Assembly (NCBI GenBank): GCA_050084515.1
Contig: CM114271.1
Location: 27,714,001 to 27,778,000, forward strand
DNA: 64,000 bases
DNA from: Blasia pusilla
Taxonomy: Eukaryota
Direction of reading: 5' to 3'
A model generated the notes under the pieces. That model was given only the letters and a program-made list of their open reading frames with translations. It did not search any database and was not told the DNA's origin. Positions 1 to 27,864 of the stretch are shown here, in pieces. A program made the position numbers and the translations under genes. Position 1 is the stretch's first letter, and each line of letters opens with the position of its first letter.

Positions 1-74
1 TGATTAGTGAGGAGATACGCCTAGTCGGAAATAATAGCTCGCATAGTATGCAAGAGAATGCACTATTTGCAAGT

Positions 75-446
75 TGTCATGACCATACGGATTATGTCGT
101 AGAGTATAGTGTGCTAGTAGAGGCCATACCTTTTGTAGGGCCGTAGTGTCTAGGTAGAGATGCGGTTTCATACATAGGGTTGGGGGTTACTTAGTTGAGG
201 ATGACTTTTCCAATAGGGCCTACTCTTAGGTTGGAGGATATAGTGTGGAGTGCATTCAAAGAACAGTTAGTTCTTTGAGTTGAGCTTGTTGCGTTGGGAG
301 TTAGCCTTGGTAGTGAATAGAGCTCTTGGCTATGGTGGTTCCCGCAAGCTTCAACTTGGATTCTTCCATCATGGAGTGGGTTTGGATCGATTGTATGTGA
401 TTCTATACGTGTTTTATGACAGTAGGTCTTTCACGGATTTCACTCA
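75..446 (+). repeat. Element 1 repeat A1 (372 bp)
   Basis: Aligns without gaps to 7942-8313, about 20 mismatches by hand count. Confidence 0.95.
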
Positions 447-1705
447 AAGAAGTGGAGTAGATCGATGGTAGCTTCGATCGTGGATCAGTAGGATCTGGTT
501 AGGGCTGATTGTGTACTCAGCCGTGGATGTTTGTGGCTTGTGGCATATGTTGGAGGTGGGAATCTGGTGCGTGGTTGGCTTGGAAAGAAGCACCTTGCTG
601 AGAGTTTTCCAACGCGCTTTAGATCGCCGGATTTCGTCAAGGGAGTTGGAAGTTATCAAGGATTGAAGATTCTGGTTCGTGTTTGACGGTTTTTTGATGT
701 GGAGAGCTTGGAATGCGGAAGCTCTGTTAAAGTTCATCGAGATCGGGTGAGAGGTTCCTGTTGCTACGTGTGTTGTGATCTCATATGAAGCTATCTGCTT
801 GAGTGTGTGGAGCGTTGCGGATTTGTGTGTGCATGAATCTGGGCGGAAGCGCTGTCGGATTTGCGATTTTGGAGGTGTATGGACAACAAGTTTGTCTGAT
901 TTTTAGCTCGGAGTACAGGGCTCGGTTGTAGCTGATTTTTTGTGGAGAGATAGCTATGGTGGCCAATTGAATTAAATTTTGGTTGAGGATTTTTGGAGTA
1001 ATTGCTGATCGAAATTTCGTGGACTAGCTCAAGGTCTAGCTATGGTGGACAACACATTGGAGGGGCTGGTTGGTTGGTGATTCGTCCGTTGTTGGAGATG
1101 CCTATCTCGTTAGGGGCGCCCTGGTTGGGCCTCTCTCCATAGCAAAGCGTGGCATGTCTCGAGCATTTCTTGGCGTTTTGAGGCTTTGAGGCAACTCGAG
1201 GCAACTCATGGTAGCTCGGGGCGAGTGGGCGTGGGAGGTGGAGTAAGGAGCAAGGAGCAAGGAGCAAGCAAGCAAGCTTGCTGCTTGCTCCTTGCTTGGG
1301 TGCGAGTGCGACTAGCACGTCATCGACCAGCGGCGGAGTAGCTATTGCGTTAGAATTGTGTGGTGGGTTCTATGGATTCAGGGGGCGCCACGTTTGGTGG
1401 ATTGTGTTACCTTGATTTCCATTTGTGATTGGAGGGTTGTCGTTGGACTTCTTGTGTTTGGATCCCCTCCATCGTTGTTTCTTGCTTGCGCGCCCATTGT
1501 TAGAGTTGACGCTGATTTCCAGAGTAGTGTTACTCTTGTGTGCTACTGGTAGTGAGGTTGGAGTGATGACCAGTAGACCGTGGGAGGCTTCTTGTGGTGA
1601 TGACATGTTAGGTTACCTACACCCATAGCTAGTAGAGCTAGAATAGTACAGCGACATCGACGTCACTTGGTTACTTAGTGGTGGTGATTTGGTGGTGGTG
1701 CGGCA

Positions 1706-3290
1706 TTGGCGTTGGTCATCACGGAGCTGTCTGGTGGTCTGGTTGGGGACCGTGGTGCGGACAGTGGTGGTTTTACACAGAATGGATTGAGGTATCGGCT
1801 ACCTTTTCCACTTCCGACGGTTGATGAAGAGGAGGACGAGGGTATTTCAAACACCGAGTCTTCTACGTTTTTATCGAGTGTTACAGCTCCATTGATTTGG
1901 GACATGGATGGGATATATGGGGCCATGAAGGGCCCACGACGATACTCGGGTGCAGTGAGCACCATTGGGTCAGAGGACTTCATTCATGAGTTTGATACGT
2001 GGTGTGATATGCAAATGTTGCGGAACGCCACGTTGTTTACACCCTTCTTGGCTTGGAAGGGGTTATTTTAGCACTTGGAGGGACCACCCATGGATGATTA
2101 CCATGAGTTTAGGAAGGACCATGTTGCTGAGATTGAGGCGTGGAGACAATATTGGTCTCCAGGCTATGTGTCTATCACCCATGGTGGTATTGGTAGTAGT
2201 GCTCCTACTATGCCAGCCAGCCCGACGTTGAGTGGTACGAGTACAAGCCGGAGTGGGGGTACCAATGGAGGTACCCATGGAGGTACCAGTGAGGATACTA
2301 GTGGAGGTACTAGTGCCCCACCATCGTTCAGCCCGGTTGCAGAGTTCTTCAAGAGGTTGAAGAAGAACTATCAAGGAGTGAAGACAGAGAAGTTGAGGAG
2401 TTTCAGGAATTTGAGCGAAAGACTGGTGAGAGTCTTCGTGAGGCATACACTCGTATGCGACGCTTGATTTCAGTTACCCAAGGTGTGACTGAGGCTCAAG
2501 CAGTCTAGTTTTGGTATGGGATCTTGGACAGAGAGTTGCGCCGCAGGGTACGTAATGCTACTCTTATGAGTGATGATTCACCCACATTGACCCACGTGTT
2601 TGCTCTATCTGAGAAGAATGAGCTTAACATGGTGGAGGAGAGAGTGGTGACATCCGCATTCAATAAGGATACAACAACAACTTCTCGTGTTCAGTCAGTC
2701 CACCTCACAGTCTCGTAGTAATGGTGGTGGTAGTAGTAGTGGGAGTCGTGGGGGATACACACAACCTGAGTCAAGTCCTAGAGGGACACTTGCGCAGAGA
2801 CCATTGCCTTCATTTGCTGCCGCACAGCAAGGACAGTTAGGTTGGACATGTGGAGGTGATCATGTTAGGAGGTTTTGTCCCCAAGAGGATGGGAGACGGA
2901 CTTTGGAGGATGGGCCTCAGTCAGCCCCTACTCAGTATGATTATTGCGGGAGACCAGGTCATCCTCGAGAGCGTTGCTTTGATCTTCATCCAGAGTTGAG
3001 ATTAGGCCGCGGCCGTGGTGGAGTAGCTCCGAGAGGCCGAGGTGGTAGAGGTGGTAGAGGTGGACCAGTGGTTGGAGAGCCTATGGTGGCTACCCCTACC
3101 ACTACGAGAGAGTCAGCTATGGTTGCCAGGATTGAGCAGTTGGAGCAGAAGTTGCCTACTATGGCTGATATCCAACATAGAGCAGGTTTGGGAGTAGGGG
3201 TTTCCACCTCTTATGGAGGGGATGATCTCTCTTATATGGCAAGTGCAGCATACTTTGAGGCATCAGTTGCAGTTACGAGAGGAGCCACTC
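1706..3290 (+). pseudogene. gag: Element 1 gag (stops and frameshifts)
   Basis: RRYSGAVSTIGSEDFIHEFDTWCD block is shared with elements 2 and 3. Two zinc-knuckle remnants (TCGGDHVRRFC, YCGRPGHPRERC) and an RGG-rich tract follow. Confidence 0.85.
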
Positions 3291-3339
3291 GAGCGTCCAG
3301 TTGGGTTATCCCCTTTGGATACTACACCCATTGTATGGC

Positions 3340-4300
3340 AGTATCCGCCGGAGGGCATTTGTGTGTTTGATCTCTTTGGTGGGATTAGCATTGGTTTGGC
3401 TGCAGTGTTGCAGGCCGGTCTTCTTGTGCGGAGATATGTGTATGTGGAGCGAGATGAGACGGCCTAGAGAGTCTCATCTCGACATATCGGTCAGTTGATG
3501 CGGAGATATCCTGAGTTGTGGCCGCCATCAGCTATTCGTGGGTACCAACGTGCTTTGCCGTCACACATTGCATTGTTGGGGACGTAGGAACTTGAGAGGG
3601 TTGGTCTTGTGGATTTGGTGATTGCTGGATGGCTATGTCAGGGTCATATACGTGCTAGTCGTGGTGAGGGATTACACGACCCTAGGTCTCGATTGTTTTG
3701 GGATATGTTACAGGTGTTACGACATCTTCAAGTTCATCAGACACGTGCTCCAGCTTATATTCTGGAGAATGTTCCATTGTTGGGTGACACTCGGGCCCGG
3801 ATGATGGCGAGTGTTCATGAGGTGAGGTCTTGGATTGGACCATCGGTGTTGTTGGATGCAGCGCGAGTTGGCTCACGTGCACATCGTCCACGCTTGTGGT
3901 GGACAAACTTGTTGCCTAGGGAGGTTCTACGTCGAGCATATGATGCAGTGCAGCGGGATCCTTGCCTTATAGTGGATAGTATCTTGGATACTGGGCGACT
4001 TTCTCAAATGGCGAGGGTTATTGATTGGTCACCCATGGCAGTGGTGAACCGTGTGGGCCAGCCTAGGATGGCACTACCCACATTTGTGAGTTTTCCCTTG
4101 TCACATGCCTACAGGGAAGGTGGTTCCGGGCTTATATGGGATTCTCATGTGTGATAGTTGGTGGAGCCTTATGCTGATGAGAGAGAGCGTGCGATGGGAT
4201 TTGCTACTAGTGTGACAGCGGTTGCTTCCATTTCTGAGGCTTCACGATGTCATGTGTTGGGTCAGGCCATAGACCTGAATTGTTTGACATGGATTTTGTC
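3340..4300 (+). pseudogene. C5 cytosine DNA methyltransferase domain (DNMT3-like) inside pol of element 1
   Basis: One reading frame, interrupted only by stops. Motif I DLFGGISIG, II VERDE, IV DLVIAGWLCQG (PC mutated to LC), VI YILENV, VIII AHRPRLWWTNL, IX ERERAMGF, X VLGQAID. Confidence 0.92.
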
Positions 4301-4693
4301 TCGGATTTTGAGTCTTGGGATGGCCGAGCAATGTCAACTTTGGACTATGTCTATGGGTCTTCTACCCCTTGTGATGAGCTTGATGGCTACCGGGACGATA
4401 GAGACATCGGCTGGGGGCGAGGAGAGTAGTATTTTGCATCCTTGGAGTAAATGGGATGTAATGGCTGGGCATGTGGAGTTGGTTGCTCATGCTGGTGGAG
4501 GAGTTATTTGCTCACATGATGGTGTAGCTGAGGGTGTACCATCTTGTGAGGGGGTTGCCTAGCAGCCAATGGTGTTGTCCTCCCCCTCTAGTGTGCCAGT
4601 GGAGGAGACTTGGGATCCATTACTTGGGCCCAAGCTTAGGGGAGGTGAGAAACGACGTTTGACACAATTCCTACGTGCTTATAGGAGTTTAGC

Positions 4694-6030
4694 ATGAAGG
4701 AGTTGGGTGGTTTGGTTGGACCCGGTATACGGATTGGTTTGGCTAGTGATTCGCCAATCTTCCGTCTTCCCTACCGATATAGTGATATGGAGAGGGACTT
4801 GATTCAGAGTAGGACGTTGGACCTTTTGGAGGCTGGATTACTGGAGTTGTCGCATGGAGAGTATGCATCAGCCAATGTATTGCGTGCTAAAAAAGATGTG
4901 CATGGCAACTACACGGATAGGCGGATGTGTGGAGATTATCGTCATATCAATCGGCAGACCAAGGCTGATAGGTATGCCATGCCTACACTTGAGGAGATCT
5001 TTGATGTGATGGGACACGCAAAGATTTTCAGTACTTTAGATCTTCGGGCAAGATACCATCAGTTGCCAATTCGAGAGAGTGAAAAGGCCAAGACAACATT
5101 TTGGGGTGTCAACTCTCATGGCAAGGATTGTTTGTACCAGTGGAAATTCTTACCCTTTGGGTTGAAGAATGCACCTGCCGAGTTTCAGAGAGTGATGGGA
5201 CGGGATCCTAGGGGTTGGATTTTGTTCGGTGTTACATTGATGATATCTTGGTGTTCAGTAACACGGTGGAGGAGCATCAGATACATTTGCAGATTGTGTT
5301 TAAGCGGTTGAAAGCTCATGGTCTACGTTTGCATCCAGGAAAGTGTAAGTTCTTCCATGAGGATGTTGAGTACTTGGGTCATGTGATCTATCTAGGTGGT
5401 TTGGGAGTTCAACAAGCAAAGGTGGAGGCTATTACACTTATTCCTTGTCCGATAGATGTGAGTAGAGTTCTGGCATTCATGGGATTGGCGAACTACTATC
5501 GGAGGTATGTGAAGGAATTTAGTGCTATGGCAAAGCCTTTGAACCAATTGCTGAAATCATATCAGGAGTGGCACTGCGGAGATGATCAGGAGAGAGCTTT
5601 TATAGAGCTCAAGGCCCAGTTGGTGACGGCGCCTATCTTGAGGAGACCTATCTGAGGGCGCCCGTTTCAGTTACACACTAATTGGAGTAGGTTGGGACTT
5701 AGAGCGGTGTTGACACAACATGATGATGAGCATATGGAGTTTGTGGTGGCGTATGCAAGTCGTTCGAATAATGCAGCGGAGTCGCACTATAGTTCATATG
5801 AGGGAGAGTACTTGGTAGTAGTGTTGGCTGTGGCACACTTTAGGTGTTACTTGCTTGGCACACAATTTACCCTTGTTACTGATCACCAGCCGCTCAAGTG
5901 GTTGATGGAGTCTGACAAGCTTACAGGGAAGCTTGCACGGTGGGCTCTTATCTTATAGGAGTATGACTTCCAGATGGTACATAGACCTGGAGTTGCCAAC
6001 CTTGATGCTGATGGGTTGAGTAGGAACCCA
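4694..6030 (+). pseudogene. pol: Element 1 reverse transcriptase and RNase H
   Basis: RRMCGDYRHIN, FSTLDL, LPFGLKNAPAEFQR, CYIDDILVFS, KCKF, YASRS, TDHQPLKWL, KLARWAL. Gypsy-type order RT-RH-IN. Confidence 0.97.
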
Positions 6031-6345
6031 TGTACTAGCCAAGAGGATGCAACTAGGGCTAGATGGCATGACGAGGTTGATGAGGAGATGATGCCAGGTT
6101 AGCATGCATCCGCCTTTTTATGTTGGTTAGGGGTGGACTCTAGTATGGAGGACCACATGACATCTTACTCTACTTAGAGGGTAGATGGCTAGCCTTTAGA
6201 TCTTAAGGTTGGAGATGGTGGTACGGATCAGCGTGATATTCATGATGATGCGTTGGTGTTGGAGTTCCTACGGACCAGTAGGGTGCTAGACATAGTGAGT
6301 GCCAAGGAGCGAGACCGTGTTCTTCTACGTGCTAAGAGGTATTGA

Positions 6346-7667
6346 TTGGAGGGAACACATATTCTCCGTGTGTGGGAGGATGGTAGAGTACGAGTAGTGC
6401 CGCATTTGGCTCAGAGAGAGCGCATTGTGCGACATGCCCATGAGGAGTTGGGACATTTTGGGGTAAAGCGTACGTATAGCCTACTCCTTGGTCAGTATTG
6501 GTGGCGTGGCATGCATACTCAAGTGCAACAGTTGGTGTCACGTTGTATGGTTTGTGACTAGGTGAGGGCATCATTCAATGCCCCTACACCACAGTTACAC
6601 CCCTTGCCTATTATGGGGTTGGGTTACCGTTGGAGTGTGGACTTTGCGGGAGCGTTACCATTGACTGTACGACATCATCGATACGTCTTGATGATGGTGG
6701 AGCACTTCTCCAAGTGGATTGAGTTGGTGGCATTACCTGACAAGGCAAGTATGGGAACGGGGGATGCGTTTCTTGATAGAGTGCTTAGTCATTTTGGTGC
6801 ACCAGCTGAAGTGCTGACCGACTAGGGTACAGAGTTTCAGGGTGAGTTTCAGGTCTTGTGTGACAAGGCGTTGATTGATCATCAGACTACGTCTCGAGAT
6901 CATCCAAAGGCGGATGGTTTGGCTGAGCATGTGGTTCAGACGGTGAAGAGGGCATTGCGCAAGTATGGCCTACAGAAGGGGCATCTTGGAGACTGGGATA
7001 TTCAGTTGCCATGGGGTATAGATTCAGTCGCCAAGCGTCCTTGGCTTCCTTCTCACCTTATTTTTTGTTATACGGCCGAGATCCAGACTTGCCAGCAACA
7101 ATTCTTCGGGAGTCTAGTGAGGTGGTGAACCTTGATGACCTAGAGATGTGGATGAGAGTGTGTTCTCAACGGGTAGAGCTCTTTCGGAGAGTTATGCCAA
7201 CAGCCTTTGAGAATCTTGCCATTGCTCAACACAGGGATACGTTGCGGTATGCAACCATTTGGGGTGGAGGTTATGGACCATCAATTTGTAGGTTCCATGT
7301 GGGGGACTATGTCTATTTGCAGCAGATTGCACCGACAACGTTGGATGTGACGGGAGGCCGCACTATTTTACGAGTACGCGAGGTGTTAGCTTCTGGAGCT
7401 CTAATGTTGGAGGGTCGTGATGGAGTTGTTTGGAAGGACCATGTGCGTAATTGTGCGCCATGTCATCTTCCAAATGTGGATGGAATTGTTGACCCAAGCT
7501 TAGCCATGATACGTGCTAGCTTGAGGTGCATGTTGTGTGGGTCAACTGGTAACGCAGCCCGTATGTTGGTGTGTGATCGGTGTTCTAGGGGTTGGCACAT
7601 GATGTGTTTGACTCCACGTATGGATGTTGTTCCTACTGGAAGGTGGTTTTGTCCTCGATGTACTTAG
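6346..7667 (+). pseudogene. Element 1 DDE integrase with C-terminal PHD finger
   Basis: HEELGH...CMVCD zinc finger; SVDFAG, TD*G and GLAE catalytic core; SPYFLLYG; terminal C4HC3 motif CMLC...CDRC...WHMMC...WFCPRC then stop. Confidence 0.95.
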
Positions 7668-7820
7668 TAGATGCTTGATCTTTGCATGATATGGATTACA
7701 AATGTGCGACTAACGATGGGGCAACCTAGCACTCGGCCTTCTGATTCGTGCACCCACAAATGTGTATAGCATGTAGTAGATGTATAGGGCTACCTGGGAG
7801 TTAGAGGGACCTAAGCGCCA

Positions 7821-7832
7821 CTTAGGGGAGCG
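7821..7832 (+). promoter_or_regulatory. Putative polypurine tract directly before repeat B1
   Basis: CTTAGGGGAGCG abuts B1. Element 3 has CTAGGGGGGCG at the equivalent position. Confidence 0.7.
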
Positions 7833-8419
7833 AGTTGTGGTACACTTGTGTTTGTGGATACTCTCGTGTATGTTATGTATGTATGTGAGTATGGTATGTC
7901 AGCGATGTATGTTGTATGACGATGTGGATTCGCACGACAGTTGTCATGACCATACGGATTATGTGGTAGAGTATAGTGTGCTAGTAGAGGCCATACCTTA
8001 TGTAGGCCCGTAGTGTCTAGGTAGAGATGCACTTTCATACATAGGGTTGGGGGTTACTCAGTTGAGGGTGACTTTTCCAGTAGGGCTCGCTCTTAGGTTG
8101 GAGGATATAATGTGGAGTGCACTCAAAGAACAGTTAGTTCTTTGAGTTGAGCCTGTTGCGTTGGGAGTTAGCCTTGGTAGTGAGTAGAGCTCTTGGCTAT
8201 GGTGGTTCCCGCAAGCTTCAACCTGGATTCTCCCATCGTGGAGTGGGTTTGGCTCGATTGTATGTGATTCTATACGTGTTTTATGATAGTAGGTCTTTCA
8301 CGGATTTCACTCAGTTGTGGTACACTTGTGTTTGTGGATGCTCTCGTCTATGTTATTTATGTATGTGAGTATGATATGTCAGCGATGTATGTTGTATGAC
8401 GATGTGGATTCGCACGACA
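7833..8419 (+). repeat. Element 1 3' repeat block: B1 (7833-7939), gt, A2 (7942-8313), B2 (8313-8419)
   Basis: B1 and B2 are both 107 bp and nearly identical. A2 matches A1. Junction reads CACGACA-GT-TGTCATG. Confidence 0.95.
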
Positions 8420-8423
8420 AAGT

Positions 8424-9400
8424 AATGGATCAAATAGAGGCAGAGGTCGTGGTAGAAGTTTCCGTGGTCATGATGGATATCAAGCACATGGAGGGAGAGA
8501 CACTCAACGTAACTTTACTCAATCAACTACGAACTAGTATTAGACACATTCAGAAGGTAGTGATAGTGGAAACCATTGGGATCGAGGTCAATAGCACAGG
8601 ATCCTTAGATCTTGTAATTAGTGTGGGATAAAGATTAGTATGCAAAGTTTAGTTTCAAGAAGATGGCATGTATGAGAATGAGAGCCTTACAACGACAAAA
8701 ATATATGGTGAAACAAAACCAAGTATAGTATCAAGAACAACAACATTCACAATCTAAACACCTCTTGATCATGACTCATCATATAGAAACAACGGTCAAG
8801 AAAGACTTGACAACAAATTGATACGTCGACTTTGGTGGATCAAATCGCATCACCTTACAAGCTAAATGATTCAATAGTAGGAGCCTATGAAAGATTGTGC
8901 AATAGTTATGAGAGGAGATGAGAGAAGATGCTACTCAATATCATATCATGTATATCGGTAAAGTTCTAATAACATCAAATGGTCTTTGTGCTATTTAAAA
9001 TATTCTCTATGTTCCTACCATTACAAGAATTTTTTTTTGTAAGACAAATAATAAACAAGACTATTAGGAGAAATTTAACATAGATGGTTGTTTCATTGAA
9101 ATAATGGATGACCAAATTATGATAGCCAAAGGAATACGATCTGACAGAATGTTTAAATTAGATGTTTATATGCTAGAGATTCAAACACCAATGTATGGTT
9201 AAAGTGGCCAACAAGGAACATATCTTAATATGTGGTATAAGAAAATCAGAGATACAAATCTTCAAAGATTAGACAGTCTTTCATCATCTAATCTAGTAAT
9301 AAGACTTCCTAAATTATCGAGTCCTACTATTTTAGAGATCTGCCCCACTTGCCTATTTGGAAAACAAGCAAGATTTCCATTTCCAAAGCAAGATAGAAGA
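8424..9400 (+). mobile_element. Old Ty1/Copia remnant into which element 1 probably inserted
   Basis: Degenerate protease *YVDFGGSN (about 8820), ILYVP (about 9000) and GAG-pre-integrase-like WYKKI...CPTCLFGKQARFPFPK (9230-9390). Confidence 0.75.
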
Positions 9401-10880: not shown

Positions 10881-12647
10881 ATATTATGAATCGTTTTCTT
10901 ACTGTCCATGAAAGGGAAAACATCTTCTTGTGAATCAAAGAGGTGTCTCCAAATAAAAAAAAGGCTTTCTATAAGAATATATTATTTGAGAAAGCCGGAT
11001 GAGATAAAAAATAGTGCACATTTTTAATAATAAAATATGAAATTCTTGAAAATCCTCAGCCCACGTAAGAAGCCGTGGACGCAGGTACGAGCGACACATA
11101 AAAAGCAGGTGGCACGCTCCGCGGAGCACACCTGGCAAACACTGAAGCGTAACATGCAAAAGCTCCTCCTCTGAACTCTGCGGGTTTCAAAACACGATTT
11201 GTGAACGCTCGAAAAACGATCAATTTTGCGCAGCGGGTCGGGGAAAAAATTGAGCTCGAGCGACCAAAGGTTAGCAATTCTCTTGAGGAGAAGACGCTAC
11301 GTGCGCAGTTGTGTTCAGATCGTGTGTTCAGAGTCTTCAGACGGTGGAGCATTGGTTGGAGCCCGTACGCAATGTCGCGAATTCGAAGGTTGTAGACTAA
11401 GGCGGGGGATTGTCCACTTTGAAGTGCCACCGCTTCACAGAGTACGTCCGTCCTGATGACTGAATGCTCATGGACCTGAATGATTCGTGGTTATGATCAA
11501 ATTGGGAGAACTTGTGAATATTTTGACCTCTTCCTGAGATACAGAATTATTGTAGTTCAAACGCTGAAGTGCTTCCTGACGATTTGTATGTATCATAATT
11601 GAATGCTCGTTGATCTTGCTAAGTATTGTGATCGAGAATCTCAAGACTTGCGTGTTGTTTCTTGCCTCTTTACGAGTGTAGAGAGTAAACTCTTAACAAC
11701 TTACGACCTTCCGATTATTGAGTCTCAATGCTGCTGCAAAAGAGAAGCAGTCGTGCAGCGCGTTGATCTCGCTCACTGCTGACATATTTCCTGATGATTT
11801 TTAGAACGAAATTCTCGTCGATCTGAATGATAACGTGATTCTGAGCATATTGAGAAAACTGGTCTTCTTCTTAAGGTAGAGAGTACCAAGTGCTTGGAGC
11901 GCTGAGATTAAAGGAGCACAGATTTAACTTCAAATTCAAATATTAGCTCTTACATCCTCGCGCAGGTACCACGAACTCACAGCTTCTTCAACTCCTTCCA
12001 AATGATTTCCAAAGGACACTGCAAATTAGAACTTGTGTTGAAATTCTCCTGCTAATCAGAACCAAGTGTGGTACTAACGTGCTTGTAAATTAAGGTCCCA
12101 ACTTAGGTTGAATACCAAAGTGTATACGGGGAGAATAAGCCGATGAGAATTGTAGGATGTTGTCAAGTCAAGTATACTATTAAGACCCTAAGGCTCTTCA
12201 CACTTAGAAAAGCCTACGCATTGGGGTTTTCTGCAGATCCAGCACACGGGTGGAATTATACATGATCCAATAAACATGTCTATTTTGTCTGATCTAACTC
12301 CCGGTCCTTAGCCTAGCGTAGGGAGAATACTTGCGCATCTTGGCTTTTACCGGTCTCTTGAAGGTACGTAAAGAAGAGTTTCTCGGGGCACTTGATGTTA
12401 GCATGAGGCTCCCTCTGAAGGTCGTAAAGTAGATGTAACAATCCAATTCTGAAATGGTTTCATCGGCGTGTGCGCGGTTACGTAGGAATGACATAGGTAG
12501 CATCTGTGTATATTTCTATTAAGCGGAGTTGTTAATTCTAGGAGAGCCTGATTGTTCACTTGAACGTCAGTGATTCTTGCATATATATATATATATATCC
12601 GAATCTCGATCGTCGCTGGAATTGCGCGAGCAAGAGTCTGAGGAGTG

Positions 12648-15600
12648 ATGGCTATATTGCGAAATCTTGCGAGTAGGGATTGGTGCGCGGTACGAGGCCC
12701 CCGACTGGCGCACGAGGGATCTGTTGCTCATCACCATCCTCTTATTTCTAATATCTGTCGCTGTACCGTTCCTCGGAGGCCCAGTGCTAATTTGAGCTTC
12801 AACATCTCTCAAGAGCTGACAGGAATAGCGCTTGTAATTGGGTCTCGGAGAAGTCGGAAGCTCCAAAGCTGCCGCTTCAAAAGCGGACTTATGGTGCGAG
12901 GAGATTTCAGAGACGCGGATCAGCCTAGAGCTGATGGAGACGTTACAGTAGAGAAGAATGATGATCGTGGTGGAGAAGTCAGACGAAGTGGAAGAATGAA
13001 CGGGAAAGTAACACATCCACCAGAAATGAAGTCTGAGTATATAGACGCATGGAAGGAGGAGTTGGCTGCAAATTCAGATCTTACGACAGAGTTGGGGGAT
13101 ACGAAGCAATCGTGGAATGATACTCTGCATGTGCAAGCACAAATTGACCGAAGATGTGTGGACAACATGAGAATGTTAGCGGTGGATTCTGTCAACACGG
13201 CGAAGGCCGGCCATCCTGGACTACCACTAGGAATAACCGAAGTGGGGTTTGTATTGTACAAATACGCCATGAAGTATAATCCTAGGAATCCAAACTGGTT
13301 CAATCGGGACCGATTTGTCCTCAGCGCAGGGCATGGATGCCTTCTTCAATACATCTGCTTACATTTAGCAGGATTTGAAGTCCAGGTCTCCCCTCCCTCA
13401 ATCTGTTCCTATCTATGGAATCACAACTCTAATGTGTTTTCCATGTGAAATTAGCTATTTGCATTTATAGAGATTCTGCATGATTCTGTTGCTAAAAGCA
13501 AACTGCATGCGGTTTGTATGTAAGCGTTGTATGTCAGCGAATGTGTGTGGGCGGATCTACCGAGCACTGTATGACAGCATGACTAACTGCATTGTGTTGA
13601 TTGTGCAGTTGGAAGATCTGAAAAGATTATGCCAGCTAGGGAGTCGGACACCCGGTCATCCAGAGAACACCACCACACCTGGGGTTGAGGTCACTACTGG
13701 TGAGAACCCTTATACGTTCGTCGAAGATTGGCTATTGCCCAACTCGACCATTGTGGACCCGAGAGATTGATTATAACCAACGACCCTAAGTACGTTGCTC
13801 TTTGCTTATTTGCACTTTGTACGTTTCTCATATTACGAGGACGTGGCAGATCGACGAAAGAGGAGAGAAGGGAGTTCCACTAACCAATGATCAATACGTT
13901 ATTCCATCAGGTCCACTGGGACAAGGAGTAGCAAATGCAGTGGGTCTTGCGTTAGCTGAAAAGCATCTAGCAGCAAGATTCAACAAGCCCGATTTCAACA
14001 TAGTGGATCATCGGACGTAAGTCCTTACATTCCACTCCTCTCAACTCCAACTCCACTCTTGTCTCGTAGTCCAACTATTGAGCACTTGAGAAGAAATACT
14101 ACAAAACCAACGGATTCGATCCGAACATTCTGAAAAAATCACGTATGCATGAGCCTTCTCTATTATGCTTCAGATAACGTCCAGTTCCGGTCTTATCTAT
14201 TGTGAAGATCCAAAATTGCAGAACTAAGGTGGTCACAAACAAAAGTGAGCGAAGGATGGTATGTAGAGCGAAGTCCACTGAAGCTGAAATGGTCGATATT
14301 GACATGGAACTCTTACTTTACAATGACTTATCTCCGCAGATTTTGTATTATGGGTGATGGATGTGCCATGGAGGGTATTTCGAACGAGGCAGCTTCGTTG
14401 GCGGGCCACTGGAAGTTGAACAAACTGACCGTCATTTATGATGACAACAAGAACACAATTGATGGATCTACGTCAATGGTTTTTAGTGAGGATGTGGGAG
14501 CTCGGTTCAGAGCTCTCGGATGGCAAGTCATCCTCGTCGATGACATTTACGAAGACCTAGAAACGCTGAAGACTATTCTCATGGTCGATGCCAACAAGAG
14601 TGAAAAGCCTACGTTCATTCAGGTCAGCTGAAATCAGATTCCATTCCTTCCCTCCATGCCGAACGTAAACACTTCAAATTACGTTTTCCTGCAGCACTGC
14701 CATCGTCTGCAGGATGACTGAAAGATGAGAAAAGCCCAGCAATTAAGAAACGAGGGCCGAAAAGGGTGAAGAGTTAACCCCTTCAAGGACTCGTGCAAGG
14801 TGGACCATAATGACCCTATGCAGGCACAAGTTGCTCCACCTAAGCAATCCGCCACAACCTCTGATGTTCAAAGTTTCTTATGGACGTTTGTACGCTTTCG
14901 TTCAACAGGTCAAGACGAGGATCGGGCGTCCATCGGTGAAAGAAGGAACTTCTAAGGCTCACCATGGAACATTTGACGACGAAGATGTTAAGCAGATGAA
15001 GGAGAAACTGAAGTGGACCGGACGAGAACCATTTCACATCATTCCAATGGTGTATGAGTAAGTTCTCGAACTGCGCACCACCACCACCATTCCAATCCGC
15101 CAGTTGATTGTGGAAAGATAATGGTGGACTCTGAGTATTCTTCCTTATCATTACTTGTATCTCCAACTTCCATGATGGTGGACAGAACACTCACTTACAG
15201 ATGTTCCATGCGGAATTCAACTTGATCTAAATTCTCCATAGAACTTGATCTAAGTGATGTTCGAGTTCCAACTCGTATTTGTCTAGAATTACTGGACTAT
15301 GAAGCATGTGCCAACCTGCCGCTACATTTCATATCTAAGTAGAAGTACGTGAAGCAGTATGAAGTATGTTCCAACACTTCGAAGATGTCCTGCTGTCGTA
15401 CAGAGAATTCAGAAAGACTGCTAAGAACGCTGCTCTGTTGGAGGAATCATGGAACTCGTTGGTCAAAGACTACGAGAAGAAGTATCCAAACGAAGGTCGG
15501 GAATTTCGACAACTCTTGAGTGGAAACCTCACCGATGATTGGCAAAAGGTCCTACCGGTAAGAGGACTTTTTATACTGAACTTTTACAGTCAAACTTCGA

Positions 15601-16780
15601 GAGTTAACTTTCATAACCCTTAAACAAGGGGTTCCGACGGGTCCTGAAGCGGGGGTTGTATCTGGTCCCGTTGATCATGTCGACTCAGCTGACGGAATTA
15701 ACTCTGACCGTCTTCATTCAGCAGATACACAGTTGTTGAGAACATTAGGATCCCTTCTTCATATCTTAAAATTTCACTTGTGCATTTTGTTGAATCCTCT
15801 TCTTGCAGAGATGGAAGGAATCTGACAAGGTGGATGCAACGCGAGGATATTCAGAGAAGTGTCTGAATGCTTTGGCTGGAGTGTTACCAGGGATGTTAGG
15901 AGGAAGTGCAGATCTAGCAAGCTCCAACAAAGTGTACTTAAAAGATATGGAGGATTTCTCATCGGAAGTTCCCTGGGGGAGAAATATTCGATATGGTATT
16001 CGTGAACATGCGATGGCAGGTATTTCGAATGGGTTGGCCTTGCATGGAAGTGGGCTTATACCATTTGCAGCAACTTTTCTAATTTTCAGTGATTACATGA
16101 AAAACTCGATGCGTCTCGCTGCTTTGAGTCAGGCTGGAGTGATCTACATTCTTACACATGACTCAATCGGTCTCGGAGAGGATGGGCCAACCCATCAGCC
16201 AGTCGAGCAGCTTGTGGGACTGAGGGCTATTCCCCGAATGGTGGTCCTGAGACCAGCTGATGGAAACGAGGTCGCTGGCGCCTACGAGGTCGCAATCAAT
16301 CGTAGGAATGCGCCCACTGTGATCTCCCTGTCACGCCAGAAAGTGGAGTCCAATCTGGCAGGGACAATGGCAGAAGGTGTTGCCAAAGGTGCGTATACAA
16401 TCAGTGACAACTCCAGCGAAGGGGAACTCCCCGAGATTATTCTCATGGGCACTGGAACGGAGCTTTGCCTTTGTGAAAAAGCTGCACAGACTCTTCGAGA
16501 GGAGGGCAAGAGTGCGAGAGTTGTTTCTCTGGTGAGCTGGGAGCTGTTTGATGAGCAGCCGCAAGCCTACCGAGACCAAATCCTCCCTCCTCTTGTAACC
16601 AAGCGTGTGAGTGTAGAAGCCGGATCTCCTCTCGGATGGAGACAGTATGTAGGACCTACAGGCCTAATTCTTGCTGTGGAGTCCTTCGGTGCCAGCGGGG
16701 CCTATCTGGATGTGTTCCAAGACTTTGGCTTTACACATCATAGAGTCATAAATGAAGCTCGCTCGTTGCTCCAGAATTGA
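12648..16780 (+). CDS. TKL: Transketolase, 7 exons, with a long N-terminal extension (possible plastid transit peptide)
   Basis: Exons 12648-13385, 13609-13699, 13911-14016, 14340-14622, 14909-15057, 15404-15557, 15809-16780, GT-AG introns in consistent phase. Motifs [32 protein letters not shown] (ThDP binding), [22 protein letters not shown]. Confidence 0.96.
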
Positions 16781-17389: not shown

Positions 17390-20300
17390 ATATAACACTG
17401 TACTCCCCACAAACATATTGTACGACTCAACTGGTGTCGTAATCGCACGTGTGCGCATCATAGCACTATCCGTCGCATGCTCTGGCTGGACTTTGCGACT
17501 ATCTCTTGTCGAGTCATATACTGCGTGGGTGACATGCCCCCAATCGAGGTCTGTATCTAGAAGGGGCAAGACTCAATGTCGGCTTTCCGTAAGCCCAACG
17601 CTAAACACACCGCCTTCCCTAACATCAAGGGTTGCGCTCCCGAATCAAGTAGGACGCGCTGCGGGTGGTATACTGTCTTTGTCAAACTAACCAAGCGAAA
17701 TACTCCAGCTTGGTTATCCAGTAACACTACTCCAGGTGTCACCACTGCTCACTCGATGGTCGGTTAAGTTGGCATATCTACCAACTTCACCGCCGTTGCA
17801 TGCCATGACTTTGTGGGGGACGTTCCGAGCACTGGCTCTGAGGGCAAGTCCACCACCTCCTCAACTACCTCTGAACAAGAAGTAGTCACCTCTCCACGCT
17901 CACACAACGTGGCGGCCAGCCGGAACACCTCAACTGGTCCAACTCACAACGTCGCCAACTCTATGGTGGAAAATAACAGAGTCTAGCTCACTCTAGTGGC
18001 CACCCCAACACTATGGTCGACATTGACTCCACTAGAGCCGACATAGGAGTTATCACTCCAACTCCTATGACGTGACGTCGACGTACCTACCTGACTTGTA
18101 GGCACCGCTGGTCGTCGAGGCACCATCGATGGTGTGTGTAGTGCCTCCGACAATGTGAATGATTGTGGAACCCTGGCCTACGGCCCATCGATCCCCTCCG
18201 GTGGGTCAATCTCAACTCCACCTCTTGGATGGCTCATTGCCTCTCGCATCACCCCGAGTCACCACTGTAGCAGCCTCAACCTGAGTTGCACTACACACAA
18301 ACCCCATACTAGCGAGATCCTCACCAGGGTTAGGGTAAGAGGTAGAAGCTAGAGCTACACTAGCAGCTCGTGGCTCCGTGCCTTCCTTGAGCTGCATCAT
18401 CGTCATGGTAGCAATCCTCTGCTCCAACTGATCGGTGCGTGAGAGAAGTGTCGGCTCTGGTGCTCCTGCTCCATCTCCTCTAGCTAGTGGTGGTCCTCTA
18501 CCACCACGTCCACGAAGAACTCCCTGACCTCCTCCAAGACGACCGTCCCCAGGCCCTTGGCCTACCTCTAGACGTGCCTCTTGACGAAGGTCAAAACATC
18601 TATCCCTAGTATGACCATATCTATGGCAATAGACACAGTGGTAATGTGGTGGGGCCAGCCTATATGGCTCCTAAGCAATCGGAGGCGCTCGTGGTCCTCT
18701 CCCATGCTGTGTGCACTCTCTCTGCCTATGGGCCCCTCCACACGTCCAACAAGACAACATCGGTCTCTGTTGGGCAACATATGTAGGTACGGGTCGTTGC
18801 CTCATAGGCTCACGGTACCCGGCCTGCTCTCTAGGCACACAGGCATGCTCCCGTGGTACTGATGCTCGCTATGGCACCTGTGGGATCATCGTCGCTCGTG
18901 GACCCGTCAACTCTTGAGAAAATCCAGAGGTCACTACTTGCTCCTCACTCATGCTGAGCTTAATACGCTCAGACAACTCAAAGACCACCTTCAATGTGGG
19001 CTTCGCTGTGTGAATCAGCACCGCATCTCGGACTCTCCTGCGTAGTTCTCGGTCCAGAACCCCGTACTAATACAGGACTGACTACGCCTAAGTCATTCCA
19101 TACGTAGCAATGATCAACCTCCTCATGCGCGTGAATGCCTCTCTCAAACTCTCACCCGATCGTCGCTGAAAATCATGTAGACTCTTCTGCTTGTCGATGC
19201 GTACGCCCTGGTAGCTCTTCCCCAAGTGTCGGAAGAACTCCAATGTGGGACTGAAGCTGGGTGGCCCTCTACCAATAGAGGTCTCTGCCACATCGCTAGT
19301 CTCACTGCCCTCCTCTCCATCTAGTCTCCGGGATGATGGTCTGGGTCTCTCTCCTCTCACGATCCCATCATATGCCTTGCGACCACTAGTGGACACATAT
19401 CGTGGAGCCCAATACATCCTCCATGCATGGATCTCCACTAAATATAGTGATCAAAACTCCATGAAGTCATCCATCGGAGGATCCTCCAAGTGCTGGAACA
19501 ACCCCTTCCATGCCATGAAAGGGTTGAATCGTATCGGGGTCCGTATCTCTTGGAAGTCACACCACGTGTCGAACTCCTGGATAAAATCATCTAAGTTCAT
19601 GGTGCCCACTGCACCCAAGAAACGATGCATGCCCTGATGGCCCATGTCGTCCATCTCTTGCCAAGTGACATTGCATCCGTCTGTGATCTCGTCACCAGAC
19701 CCAGTGTCTACTGATGAGGATCCAGCCACGGATAGATGTTGAGGTAGGTCCTCACTCGTAACCCCTTGGTATCTCACTCCACTCCGTGTCACACCACTAC
19801 TACTGCTCGCACTACCCCGTTCTTCCGAACCCTGGAAGAACGCTGTGATGACAACCCTGTCTCACCCGCTCAAGCACTCAGACTCACCGAGAGTCTCCCA
19901 CACTCCTCACTAGCTTACCTATGCTAACATCAATCCCGTGATGACACACCCAACCTCACACACACTCAACACTCAGGCTCACCATGCGCCTCCCACTAAC
20001 TCACCTAATCTACCGACACGCTCGGGTCATACATACGACCCCTACTCGAAAACCGCCGTTTATCCACCAACATGCTACACATGATAAGAGTCTACACTCA
20101 TCACCATCACTGCACCCACCTAGCACCAACTACTACTCGATATCCAGCACTCTCAATCACAAAAGAGTGCGAGAAAAGGGACTCGAATGGGTAACCTGAT
20201 CACGCCTACCAACCTACCGCACAGTCAGCATCCACTTCTCCATGTGATATGACAACCTCCGCAACACGACACTCTCCTCGACCAACACGTCGAACCTCTC

Positions 20301-22351
20301 GTCAACATCGACGTGTATGTCTCCATCAGAATCCTTGCAAATCCTAGCCACGCTCGAAAAATATTACGTCTTGAAAAAATCTCTCCGCCCATCCCCAGAC
20401 GTGCCTCGCAATCTCAACTCAACCATGTCCAAACTCAACCATGCCCGTCTATCACATCACTCGCGTTGCTACCACGTTGCCCTACTACGTCCGCCCTGGC
20501 CCCTACTACACCTACCGCTCTGCCCCTATCCAATATGATCCAACCACGTACATGATTACTACGTCCCTACCACATCCGCTCCTCCATGTCGCAACTATGT
20601 AAGGGAAAAAAAAGGGCCAAGGGCTTGGCCCGCGTCCCTATGGACCATAATGGCCCTAGAGCCCTAAATGCGCGTGGGGGGGAGGGGGGGGGAAGGGAAG
20701 GTAAACGCCTCCGCGCCTTGGCTTCATCCGAGTTGCTCCGTCCTACTCTAGTGACCTATGACCTAACCCTAGTCTCTAGCTGCCTTTACTTGACAACCCC
20801 CCCGGATGGCTGCAAGGCTAAGCTCTCCTTTCCCTCTTCTTCCCGACATCCCGCCATTCTCCCGTCAACACTACACTCTGTGCTACACTCCAGCACCCTG
20901 TCTGCCACTCTGTTGCTGCTCTACTCTACAATCTGCACCTGCAAAATCTACGAAAAAATGGACAGCGCTTCCGCCCACAGTCTTTCGAAGAGAAATATGA
21001 CCAAAAAAATGCCAACAAGCGTCTCCAGGGGCTCCCCACCGAGGCAACTCGCTTGCCTACCTACAAAAAACCAATTCCCACCAGCCCCCCTGACATCTTT
21101 CTCATGTAAAAGTAAAGAGTAGTGAAAGACCTCAATAAGAAAATTTTCAGAAACGACATTCCTGACACAATGGACCTATCCTCAACCTCATCCGACATCG
21201 TGGGACAAAGTTACACTCAAGATAGTCCGTTGGCTCCTACGCCCTATCTACGATAGATCTCGGCCTATCGGCTACTAAGATGTGAAAACATATTCATAAA
21301 CGTTTGAATTCCCCACAGCCATTCATTATGTGACCAAGAGTCTCCTCATCCATTTGAGCTTTTCCGCAACTCTCCATACCAATGTCGGCTGAGAGAGCGC
21401 TTTTGCCGCACATAACTCCTTTAGGGATGCTAGATGCTCTTGAATTACCTCCCGCTGAATGCAAGAATGCTTTAGGAAAAGGCTAAAAGGTTGTACGCAA
21501 AGGCTAAAAGGTAAGGCAATAGATGTGGAAGGCTAAAAGGGTACGCACTATACCAGGAGGCATAAGCTGTGCTTGTGCTTGGTATTGACAATCTGAGATT
21601 GAATACAAATAGAGAAGGATTAATTACATCCTCAAATGCGCGGATTGTCCCGCGTCCGACCCTCACCAAGAAAGAAATTTCCGAGATGTCCGTGTCATCA
21701 GATGATATGCACGCTGTCAAATCAAACTTCCATCCGAAAACAACAATCCAAACAAGAAGTAGCCTCAGTCGGACAAGCTTCTAAAACAAGCACCCGATGA
21801 AGAGATTCTGAAGCATCCAACAAAACGAAGTAGAATAACCATGATGCAAATCATAACCATAAACGTTCCAACTGATTTTCCCCGTAAGCAACCATGACTA
21901 TCCGCGCCGCATTTGGGCCACAAAGCATCCACAAATACCACTCAGCCAGATTTTTTCCACGCTAGAATCTAGATTCCAACGAAACTATTGTTGAGCATAC
22001 AAAATTAATTGCAGTAGTTTGCATGTTTGCAATCCTTAGGTTGCTCCGCCATAGCCCCCCTCCCCCCCTCTCGAATGAAATGTAGAATCCCCCGCCACTC
22101 ACGGAGAGGCGGGGGAAATGACCTAAAATGCCATGTCACTCCTTCCGCTCACCACAGCGGTCATTTGAAAAATGCCCCATATCCTTCAAAGGCACCACCA
22201 AATCTTGAAGCACTTCTAGCTCCACAAACGCCATCCTTCTCATTCAACCGGTTTTGTCTATATTACATACTCCCGCAAGTAAAACTAATCCGATGAAACC
22301 CTCACCTCCAAGCCACGAGAAACTGCACAACTCAGAATTCTGGCAGTGACA
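17390..22351 (-). mobile_element. Element 2: 3'-truncated member of the same lineage (leader, gag, protease only)
   Basis: gag HRFLGAVGTMNLDDFIQEFDTWCD (19451-19792) and protease VLLDSGAQPLMLG (17557-17745). Homology stops after GSTVLY at about 17390. The 5' end TGTCAC at 22351 is only a candidate. Confidence 0.8.
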
Positions 22352-22369
22352 CAAACGCACTCCGCACTA

Positions 22370-22533
22370 TCTAAACCTTATCGAGATCTCAATCAAGGAT
22401 AGTTTTATCATGGTTAAATTTGATGCTTGTAAAATTTAACCATGATAAAGGCCCCGTGCGATCATGGTAAATGGTACATAGATCAAGCCCCGTGCGATCA
22501 TGATAACCATGATCGCACGAACTTTCTTACTAG
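22370..22533 (+). mobile_element. Miniature non-autonomous Helitron-like element (about 164 bp)
   Basis: A|TC...CTAG|T boundaries. 12-bp-stem hairpin CGTGCGATCATG-ataac-CATGATCGCACG ends 10 nt before CTAG. Internal 18-bp perfect inverted repeat at about 22405-22449. Confidence 0.65.
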
Positions 22534-22599
22534 TTCCTTTAAGGATTAGAGATTAGACCAAAGAATTAAAGTGGGTCCCTTCCCTTTGTATAACTCTTA

Positions 22600-23122
22600 G
22601 GACTCCGTTTTGTTCTTCGATCCAATTAATCGGGTTCCCTAGCTTTGTTTTGATCTTTGGTTCAATCCGCCTCTTCCCTTTGATCTTTCTTTTATTCTTT
22701 GGTTCAATGGAACCCATCCCTTAGGACTTTGTTAATTCTTGTGTCAAATCGACCCCTTCCCTTGGGACTCCGCTTAATTCTTTGGTCTAATCGGACTCTT
22801 CCCTATGGCCTCGTCACAATTATAAGGTCTAGTTATTCGGCCCCTTCCCTTCTGTCTCTCTTCAATGCTTCGGTTCAAGGGCCCCCTTCTCTTCGGACTC
22901 GACTTTCTTCTTTTAACCCCTTCACTTTAAAGTCTCCTTAATTCTTCAATCCAATTGAACCCTTCTAGTTGGACTCTTCTTTGTTCTTTGGTCCAATTGG
23001 CCCTTGCCTTAAAACTCTACCTAATTCTTTGGTCTAGTCAGTCATCCCCGTTGGACCGTGCTTAAATCTTCGTTCCAATCGATTGGCTTTGACTGCGCTT
23101 AATTATTCAGTCGAATCGGCCC
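22600..23122. repeat. Degenerate pyrimidine-rich tandem repeat (about 40-43 bp unit)
   Basis: Recurring GGACTC...TTAATTCTTTGGTC(C/T)AATCGG-like units. Confidence 0.6.
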
Positions 23123-23817
23123 ATCTATATTATTATGGGAGAGTGTCTTTTGATTTGCAAACACATCTACCCTTAACATGTGGCAAGTGGACAGCAAAAA
23201 AATTTTCATATGCATAATTTAAAATTTTTTTTTATGCGCAATATCATTAATATCTTCCGTACGCCAGCTTTTGAATTTTTTAAAAAAATTCCCGATTCAT
23301 CTTGCTAGTTTTAATGGGAAGCCGTGGATTACAAACCAAACTAACTCCCGTTTCATTTTAAAATTGCATGGGAAAGACTTCCCGGGAACTAAGTACTGGT
23401 AAACCCTTTCGCAGAGTTACCGTTCCCGGCTGTAAAGACCCGGTAACGTACCGGGTGCCCGTAGCAGCGAACGTCTCAATCGAGAGAGACTAGCATGCTG
23501 CGCCCATCTCCATCGGAGGTGAGAGGAGAGGGTACCGAAATAACAGTCAATCCTAAGGACCGTTGAGAATTTAAACTTGTATTTCCCGCGCTTGGCTCCA
23601 CATCGACTATGATTACTGCTTGCAACAGTCCAGAAGTGACCATCGTGATATTACGTTGCCGATGGGTGCTTCGTTCAAACTGATCCTGTCTCCGCCGCCT
23701 TTGTCTTTAGAGCTATTAGACATCGAGTGAAATCTCCCAGCAAAAGATTGCTGCGCGAATTGTTACAAGGACTTTTATCCTCTGGCTCGATTCGGTACCA
23801 ATCGCTCATCGTTTATC

Positions 23818-27484: not shown

Positions 27485-27864
27485 ACTAGTCTAATTAGTG
27501 CCCGCGTGATGGAACGTGTCACGCGTGTATTTAAACGCTTAGGAACACGTGTCGTCTCCCGCAGGAGTCGCCATATAGAGTCATAGATGGAACCCTCCGC
27601 AAATTATAGTATAGATAAACCTACAAGTTAGATAGATAGAAATGAAAATATTTCACATCTATCTAGCTTACCAAACACATAACATAATAATACATACAAT
27701 GTTAGTAGTTTAATTAGTGCCCGCGTGATAGAACGTATCATAGATGTGCACTCCTTGTGTGCGTATACTCCTCTTATGAATACACCTTATGAATGTGCGT
27801 ACACACCTCTCTTGAGCCCTGCCCCGTATTTAAACGCTTAGGAACACGTGTCGTGTTCCGGAGG
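27485..27864 (-). repeat. Tandem Helitron-like 3' termini; target site of element 3
   Basis: Minus strand reads CGCGTGA...TCACGCG hairpin then GGCACTAATTAGA-CTAGT at about 27485-27527, with a second copy at about 27703. 27525-27657 duplicates the joined flanks of element 3. Confidence 0.65.

Follow-up and report, generated by a model that had tools for sequence, protein, structure and literature searches.

How does a retrotransposon come to carry the two ends that its integrase recognizes back to back in its interior, and from what molecule is such an element inserted? The question is raised by a 64,000-nucleotide stretch of Blasia pusilla contig CM114271.1 (positions 27,714,001 to 27,778,000 of assembly GCA_050084515.1; herein the window), in which two long terminal repeat (LTR) retrotransposons, element 1 on the plus strand and element 3 on the minus strand, each contain a short repeat B joined to a longer repeat A through a palindrome of the form CACGACA-GT-TGTCA. 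We propose that they belong to a bryophyte lineage of self-priming Ty3/gypsy elements with a C5 cytosine DNA methyltransferase (DNMT) domain and a PHD finger on the integrase, in which the integrase ends lie 2 bp apart inside the LTR and not at the ends of the complementary DNA (cDNA), and which would follow the replication cycle set out below; we give this reading a probability of roughly 60%. Its parts differ in strength. The permuted-LTR anatomy and the use of the internal half-sites are very likely, while the identification of a closed 2-LTR circle as the integration substrate falls just short of even odds.

Repeat finding and self-BLAST confirm the A/B layout in the window, and both junction sites are the joint of B with A. 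In element 1 (plus strand) these methods place A1 at 75-446, B1 at 7833-7939, the dinucleotide GT at 7940-7941, A2 at 7942-8313, and B2 at 8313-8419; in element 3 (minus strand) A1 lies at 38537-38026, B1 at 28597-28487, GT at 28486-28485, A2 at 28484-27971, and B2 at 27970-27865. Table 1 gives the functional boundaries. The interiors of the two elements are ∼70% identical, which marks them as separate, old members of related subfamilies. Within element 1, A1 and A2 are 94.6% identical and B1 and B2 96%; A1 and A2 of element 3 are 87.7% identical. Element 1 opens with TGTCATG at 75 and closes with CACGACA at 8419, with AAGT on both flanks. Element 3 is bounded by TGTCACG and CACGAC+T, with CCTC on both flanks, and conforms to the TG..CA pattern if its terminal T is a mutated A; the empty site is visible in an uninterrupted paralogue of its target (27657-27520). 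This target is itself a repeat (27563-27657 and 38539-38634), the second copy of which, ∼200 bp past the element, keeps the empty site. The termini and target duplications of both elements thus show that each inserted copy is bounded by the two half-sites that also abut at the internal junction. A DDE integrase leaves such a 4-bp target duplication as its mark.

Searching metagenome contigs with the integrase-PHD protein yielded 80 related loci, 45 to 85% identical at the protein level, and A and B were mapped in all of them. These loci are short-read metagenome contigs, and some of the 80 rows represent one locus in several samples, so that unique counts are approximate. A sequence-only reading of the window had described CACGACA-GT-TGTCATG at 7933-7948 and CACGACA-GT-TGTCACA on the minus strand at 28493-28478, and both sites read as described. 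The 14-mer CACGACAGTTGTCA occurs exactly twice in the window, at these two junctions; shuffled sequence is expected to contain 0.43 copies at up to two mismatches, and the location of both sites at the homologous position of two related elements carries more weight than this count. Across 30 junction rows (28 related loci and the two window elements), covering all families sampled, the spacer between ..ACA and TGT.. or TAT.. is exactly 2 bp in every row. Its letters are GC in 11 rows, AC in 7, GT in 6, AT in 5, and TC in 1; they are purine-pyrimidine in all rows except one and interrelated by transitions. With a GC or AT spacer, the core GACA-NN-TGTC is a perfect palindrome. The sequence-only reading had named a lack of spacer conservation across families as a ground for refutation; conservation holds for the length of the spacer and fails for its letters.

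The boundaries of A and B coincide with the predicted primers of reverse transcription. A polypurine tract (PPT; AGGGGAGCGA at 7824-7833 in element 1) stands before B1 and not before A2, as had been noticed from the sequence alone. The similarity between B1 and B2 starts no more than ∼10 nt past the G run (e.g., ctaggggggyg) in 25 of 25 rows, which include at least three subfamilies with unrelated B starts; a plus-strand primer would be cut at this point. At the other boundary, 15 of 20 rows have after A1 a short sequence that is perfectly complementary over 8 to 14 nt to a site within A, although the 8-nt matches are weak when taken alone (∼0.17 expected by chance, by our estimate). In element 1 this predicted primer-binding site (PBS) forms a 10-nt perfect complement (ACTCAAAGAA with TTCTTTGAGT); in element 3 the match goes through its A2 copy. 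In 13 rows the self-primer site falls within positions 155-197 of A, with a TATA-like box ∼30 nt above it; in the other two, where the canonical site carries mutations, the best score goes to a similar second site close to position 250 of A.

Four subfamilies have four different pairs of PBS and self-primer sequence, each ∼30 nt below a TATA-like box. The sequence after A1 and its complement inside A are ACTCAAAGAAC(T) and (A)GTTCTTTGAGT in element 1 and family 1, AATCACCAAAAGT and ACTTTTGGTGATT in locus L057, AAAATCCA and TGGATTTT in locus L076, and CAAAGAGAG and CTCTCTTTG in element 3. That different subfamilies use different pairs amounts to covariation, which is the signature of self-priming, a mechanism known from Tf1 and predicted for the Tcn1 clade of plants (PMC6317226, in the part available). 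With a plus-strand primer before B and a minus-strand primer after A, reverse transcription has to yield LTRs of the form B-NN-A. The sequence-only reading had proposed B-gt-A as the replicative LTR, and this is borne out in the general form B-NN-A, as the PPT abuts B1 in all 25 rows and the self-priming PBS abuts A1. It follows that the joint of A2 with B2 in an inserted copy is the U5 end against the U3 start. These cDNA termini (the start of B and the end of A) differ from one subfamily to the next and mostly lack TG..CA; conservation in all of them is seen at the internal half-sites.

To follow the RNA across this 3′ region, two stranded RNA runs (X22 and X23) and two DNA contig sets (X1 and X3) with the same species label were mapped on window 7300-8700. 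Sense RNA depth is ∼100 to 250 from 7300, at the end of the integrase, across the PPT, B1, the junction, and A2. It drops between 8193 and 8333; B2 (8334-8427) has practically no cover (0 in X22, about 3 in X23), and the flank has 0. Most reads are 90 to 99% alike to the window and hence come from related copies. A set of 27 X22 reads passes from A at 8313 into the leader following A1, with 28 of 30 letters identical to window 447-476; they represent the 5′ R-U5 portion of the RNA. Another 16 reads, in X23, arrive at position 7942 of A from a mixture of upstream sequences and represent read-through into the A1 of various copies. The RNA has the ordinary R-U5..U3-R form, without B2 or the A/B joint; the joint is consequently not inherited through the RNA and must be rebuilt from cDNA ends at every insertion.

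The make-up of the joint agrees with such an origin. It consists of the exact U5 end and U3 start in most families; in element 1 the first four PBS letters (CTCA) persist, and locus L046 keeps 1 to 2 letters of the PPT end. In X1, 23 contigs (depth 2,589 of 26,584) have a 4-letter deletion at 8307 that removes CTCA between U5 and B2, as do 5 contigs in X3 (depth 1,961 of 6,515); copies of one subfamily thus differ at the A/B joint. PBS and PPT letters are reported to be kept at the cDNA ends of Tf1, about half of which carry the copied PBS, and at ligated HIV-1 circle junctions as well (both in the available text of PMC11042837). By this comparison the joint resembles a pair of completed cDNA ends brought together.

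Two further classes of RNA read were seen in the same region. Reads joining 8259 back to 7971 (4 in X22, 10 in X23), that is, position 318 of A to position 30, share 4 letters at the joint and could derive from a rearranged genomic copy, a template switch, or a circular RNA. Others (10 and 7) skip 97 nt (window 7784-7882), spanning the PPT and the first half of B1, and represent either a deleted copy or a spliced form.

The coding content places the elements with the Ty3/gypsy type. The coding region of element 1 (1688..7667, plus strand) is degenerate, with stops throughout, and the HHCC and the D, D, and E residues of the integrase can still be read. Relatives in liverworts (Marchantia, Calypogeia, and Riccia) and mosses (Sphagnum) have matches to rve, Integrase_H2C2, RVT_1, RT_RNaseH, DNA_methylase, and PHD (PF00665, PF17921, PF00078, PF17917, PF00145, and PF00628), and long homologous proteins are annotated in Marchantia. 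The Ty3/gypsy (Metaviridae) pol order of reverse transcriptase (RT), RNase H, and integrase with HHCC and DDE is present, as are the short target duplication and TG..CA termini, in the window elements and in relatives. Two complete, identical flanking LTRs are absent, B preceding A1 at none of 20 5′ ends; the inserted forms are A-internal-B-NN-A-B or A-internal-B. A tyrosine recombinase domain (PF00589) has no match in the 20 open reading frames (ORFs) of the window or the 10 ORFs of relatives that were scanned.

The DNMT match in element 1 is borderline (22.1 bits against a cut-off of 22), and four long ORFs of relatives from the DNMT region gave no Pfam match; the domain is confirmed solely through precomputed PF00145 matches on homologues. 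Such matches occur on most homologues, including Marchantia, Calypogeia, and Sphagnum proteins of 900 to 2000 aa that also have RT, RNase H, integrase, and PHD. On these domain matches, the elements form a DNMT-bearing Gypsy family in bryophytes. The PHD finger (PF00628) is found in most of the homologues listed and lies at the C terminus of the integrase, where chromoviruses carry a chromodomain.

Table 1. Positions in the window of the features of elements 1 and 3
Feature	Element	Position	Strand	Basis or remark
Left target duplication AAGT	1	71-74	+	directly 5′ of TGTCATG (75)
A1, from TGTCATG to ..GGATTTCA (U5 end)	1	75-442	+	repeat identity to A2
TATA-like box in A1	1	about 236-245	+	
Predicted self-primer sequence GTTCTTTGAG in A1	1	270-279	+	complementarity to PBS
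Predicted self-priming PBS CTCAAAGAAG	1	443-452	+	complement of 270-279 inside A
gag-like region with CCHC	1	about 1688-3370	+	
C5-DNMT-like domain	1	3588-4154	+	
RT	1	4685-5655	+	Pfam RVT_1
RNase H	1	5656-5958	+	Pfam RT_RNaseH
Integrase HHCC finger	1	6346-6561	+	
Integrase DDE core	1	6562-7128	+	
C-terminal PHD finger	1	about 7527-7667	+	
PPT	1	7824-7833	+	directly upstream of B1
B1, first part of U3, ending CACGACA	1	7833-7939	+	transcribed with internal region and A2
Internal palindromic junction, proposed integrase recognition site	1	7933-7948 (spacer 7940-7941)	+	CACGACA-GT-TGTCATG
A2, rest of U3, then R and U5	1	7942-8309	+	sense RNA depth reaches zero at 3′ end
TATA-like box in A2	1	8106-8111	+	
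Predicted self-primer sequence in A2	1	8137-8146	+	
CTCA kept at U5/U3 joint	1	8310-8313	+	first four PBS letters
B2, second B copy joined to U5 end	1	8314-8419	+	terminal CACGACA is right end of insertion; without RNA cover
Right target duplication AAGT	1	8420-8423	+	directly after CACGACA (8419)
Left target duplication CCTC	3	38538-38541	-	
A1, begins TGTCACG at 38537	3	38026-38537	-	
CAAAGAGAG after A1	3	about 38025-38016	-	complementary to CTCTCTTTG inside A
C5 cytosine DNA methyltransferase domain in pol	3	33522-32792	-	
PHD part	3	28798-29193	-	
B1, ending CACGACA at 28487	3	28487-28597	-	PPT ctaggggggcg before it
Internal junction	3	28478-28493	-	CACGACA-GT-TGTCACA
A2	3	27971-28484	-	identity to A1
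B2, ending CACGAC and T in place of expected A	3	27865-27970	-	
Right target duplication CCTC	3	27861-27864	-	

The related loci show which forms of the element are inserted. B-NN-A-B follows the PHD finger in 25 of the 80 rows (17 to 19 unique), and 29 rows (21 unique) are A-internal-B, with the ..ACA end directly against unrelated flank; two of the latter (L037 and L038) are deletion derivatives. Ten more are flagged as having a truncated B, six of which also end with ..ACA at the flank, and in 13 the contig stops before B. Perfect 4-bp duplications surround all four unique A-internal-B-NN-A-B loci with both ends present (CATA, AAGG, CATA, and AATC) and five of eight such A-internal-B rows. 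The remaining three rows (two unique) represent a third form with an inverted start of A at the 3′ end (L001, 1283-1798; L011, 3361-3877; L013, 1412-1928), in which B1, NN, and the whole of A2 are followed by the PBS, a 3-nt loop, and the inverted first ∼180 nt of A, finishing GGTCATGACA against the flank. A plus-strand copy of a long, unremoved self-primer would give this form, if the RNA had begun upstream of A; the read-through RNAs that read into A1 are candidate templates. Judging from this end, the integrase appears to have taken the inverted start of A as its CA end. An unrelated dispersed repeat of ∼800 bp is inserted in the A2 of L042 (1590-2411) and L045 (1736-2557) and occurs in both orientations in more than 20 loci.

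In the cycle that we propose, transcription would begin in A ∼30 nt below the TATA box and terminate further on in A. The 5′ end of the RNA (the self-primer sequence of Table 1 in element 1) would fold onto the PBS just after A1 and prime the minus strand as in Tf1, and the G-rich PPT before B would prime the plus strand, giving a cDNA with B-NN-A LTRs. The cDNA termini, U5 end and U3 start, would then become joined, most simply in a 2-LTR circle. The integrase would nick after CA on each strand of one CA-NN-TG palindrome, leaving recessed CA-3′OH ends with 2-nt 5′ overhangs, in line with the sequence-only reading, and the opened molecule would be inserted with a 4-bp target duplication as A-internal-B-NN-A/B; use of the TG half-site of one LTR with the CA half-site of the other would give plain A-internal-B. 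A copy that can be replicated again needs a second R downstream, so that only the form with A2 qualifies and the U5/U3 joint is needed. Positions, covariation, and the extent of the RNA make it most likely that the B-NN-A cDNA would arise by self-priming and PPT priming; the insertion products make it most likely that the integrase acts on the internal TGTCA and TGACA half-sites, with a 4-bp staggered insertion.

Integrases can cut palindromic LTR-LTR junctions, according to the available text of PMC1180852 and PMC1905944. More generally, though we entertain this tentatively and with well under even odds, the substrate may be circular or equivalent to a circle and be opened by a retroviral-type integrase at an internal palindromic att site. 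In the boldest version, a caulimovirus-like open circle with one LTR would be the primary product, its cutting would give a dead-end A-internal-B copy, and only the two-LTR form would replicate again. A circle with an internal att site is a model that was once proposed, and then abandoned, for retroviruses, and it recalls the circle junctions of bacterial insertion sequences.

Several observations weigh against this account. If a free 2-LTR circle were cut at either of its two identical junctions, the mirror permutation A/B-NN-A-internal-B should be as frequent as the form observed, and it is found at none of 20 5′ ends (18 loci and the two window elements, ∼16 unique). B-NN-A-B is present at 27 3′ ends (∼19 unique of ∼42) versus no mirror 5′ ends, a difference with a Fisher p of 0.0005 on unique counts, in overlapping samples. 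Plain A-internal-B is common (the 29 rows above), so an abutted junction is not required; together with the third form, these copies indicate that half-sites work far apart and hundreds of bases from the cDNA end. The plain copies could, for their part, be B1 × B2 deletions or repeats collapsed in assembly; two of them (L057 and L058) have no matching duplication and a third (L009) matches at 3 of 4 positions. The identity of A1 to A2 within an element (88 to 92%), compared as a sign of LTR regeneration at each cycle, is not clearly higher than that between family 1 copies (85 to 91%), and the letters of the spacer, unlike its length, are not conserved. No intact pol is present in 18 internal regions examined among the loci, where the longest ORF is 545 aa. 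Transcription is placed at the self-primer sequence by inference, and the only pile of read starts, at 8103 (28 molecules from a single run), is 34 nt upstream of where that start is predicted. Finally, we infer the circle, the nicking geometry, the start site, the choice of junction, the cDNA ends, and the activity of the integrase. The circular-intermediate origin suggested in the sequence-only reading accordingly stands in part: the genomic copy is a circular permutation with A2/B2 as U5/U3, and the ends of the insertion are the halves of the palindrome, but the missing mirror form and the use of separated half-sites weaken it.

The absence of the mirror form is what a one-sided extension of linear cDNA would produce. 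If the plus strand ran past U5 and switched to the U3 start, recopying B, or else copied an unremoved self-primer, and the integrase then took the outermost half-sites, exactly A-internal-B, A-internal-B-NN-A/B, and the inverted-A form would be expected, with no mirror form (0 of 20 5′ ends) and no closed circle. The inverted-A form does show that copying of primer RNA can lengthen the cDNA at its right end, and the retention of the copied PBS on about half of Tf1 cDNA (PMC11042837, in part) points the same way. An end-to-end template switch at that step is, however, undocumented for these elements, and the make-up of the joint fits ligation equally well; we regard this route as unlikely. Less probable again is a route in which the integrase acts on one junction of a linear cDNA and joins both half-sites to the target, leaving the true cDNA termini as a chromosomal break to be sealed by host end joining. 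It would yield the same A/B joint, with occasional primer-derived letters and no circle, but the mirror form should then be as frequent as under the circle model, against 0 of 20 seen, and each productive insertion would depend on the repair of a double-strand break.

Two other explanations would dispense with the permuted LTR altogether. An ordinary LTR element with A as its LTR, in which B2 reflects a local rearrangement, a nested insertion, or an assembly artefact, has in its favor that LTR finders would call A1 and A2 as the LTR pair and that all copies are old and mutated. Yet the layout recurs in both window elements and 25 locus rows (∼17 unique) from families 45 to 85% identical in integrase, B2 lies within the target duplications, the PPT stands upstream of B1 but not of A2, and contigs of two further DNA runs carry the A/B joint. 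Recurrence and the positions of the target duplications lead us to reject this explanation, which we consider very improbable; chance is rejected too. The order A-internal-B-A-B is also that described for split-direct-repeat retroelements of the DIRS, PAT, and Ngaro type (PMC5890265, in the part available). On that explanation RNA would run from A1 into B2, a B1-A2 bridge would close a circle, and a tyrosine recombinase would insert it. Here a DDE integrase is present, the 30 scanned ORFs lack a tyrosine recombinase domain, and perfect 4-bp target duplications flank the copies. The RNA does not reach B2, which excludes a DIRS-type scheme of transcription from A1 into B2. On the integrase, the duplications, and the extent of the RNA, a tyrosine-recombinase element is rejected, with next to no probability left to it. 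Split-direct-repeat tyrosine-recombinase elements are not known to make a target duplication.

The internal-junction elements share features with several known systems. Like Tf1/Sushi and the plant Tcn1 clade, they have a PBS complementary to their own 5′ RNA and not to a tRNA and, in a comparison by features, the order RT-RNase H-integrase, 4-bp duplications, and TG..CA ends; with Tf1 they further share primer letters kept at cDNA ends (PMC11042837, in part). In plants, the Tcn1 and TAR lineages are reported to be self-priming (PMC6317226, in the part available). They differ in that Tf1/Sushi/Tcn1 elements insert as LTR-internal-LTR, whereas the inserted ends of the bryophyte elements lie inside the LTR, and in having a PHD finger in the chromodomain position and a DNMT domain in pol. 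KnitGypsy-Dnmt3 of the streptophyte Klebsormidium nitens is described as a Gypsy element with a C5-DNMT domain in pol (PMC5890265, in part); the bryophyte pol has the same kind of domain (PF00145), domain content alone being compared. The repeat order A1-internal-B1-A2-B2 is shared with PAT-like elements, Ngaro, VIPER, and SymbioDIRS-Dnmt3, but those encode a tyrosine recombinase, in contrast to the DDE integrase, 4-bp duplications, and PPT- and PBS-set repeat boundaries found here.

In 2-LTR circles of prototype foamy virus, and for HIV-1 in vitro, a palindrome of two att half-sites is cut internally by a retroviral-type integrase, which yields processed ends (PMC1180852 and PMC1905944, in the text available), as would happen here. 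The retroviral palindrome is the joint of LTR ends, and cutting restores the linear order; the bryophyte palindrome lies inside the LTR, and cutting it would give a permuted copy. The retroviral LTR-LTR junction has 4 bp between CA and TG, as compared with a spacer of 2 bp in the bryophyte elements. Circle junctions of IS3 and IS30 consist of abutted inverted ends a few base pairs apart on a circular intermediate and are used by a DDE enzyme. These are DNA transposons without reverse transcription, their proteins are unrelated beyond the RNase H-like fold, and the resemblance is best taken as analogy only.

Other features of the window concern the composition and surroundings of the elements. 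Strand asymmetry is strong: the coding strand of element 1 (window 1-8000), which is G- and T-rich, has a GC skew of +0.23 to +0.33, and the minus-strand elements (window 18000-38000) have one of -0.17 to -0.26. Element 3 contains a 0.6-kb copy of its own gag-like region (29433-30094 versus 35933-36582, 76% identical) between the integrase core and the PHD part, at a point where element 1 has only ∼40 nt. A gag-like fragment with a CCHC knuckle at 17800-19900 (minus strand), ∼70% identical to 1920-2172 and related to elements 1 and 3, is probably the element 2 of the sequence-only reading; neither A nor B repeats were detected in its vicinity. The host genes are a transketolase with introns (12642-16780, plus strand) and a 605-aa exportin-like ORF (59855-61672, minus strand); like the protein matches, they indicate a liverwort genome.

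In the open-access literature searched, split direct repeats are known solely from tyrosine-recombinase retroelements, and we found no prior account of permuted or circle-junction DDE LTR retrotransposons; Repbase and subscription journals lay outside the search. On these searches, no earlier description appears to exist of a Ty3/gypsy lineage with a DDE integrase that is inserted in rotated form relative to its cDNA. Among LTR retrotransposons with a DDE integrase, it would be the first to be inserted in this way, and it shows an integrase able to take both ends from inside the LTR. Because members of the family are transcribed, a tractable plant now offers a test of the old question of whether LTR-LTR joints feed integration. 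With standard LTR finders, A would be called as the LTR and B2 missed; elements of this kind may account for some of the many unclassified retrotransposons reported for Marchantia (bioRxiv 10.1101/363937, in the part available). The family is also of interest for the ways in which transposons cope with host chromatin, as its pol is joined to a DNA methyltransferase and a PHD finger.

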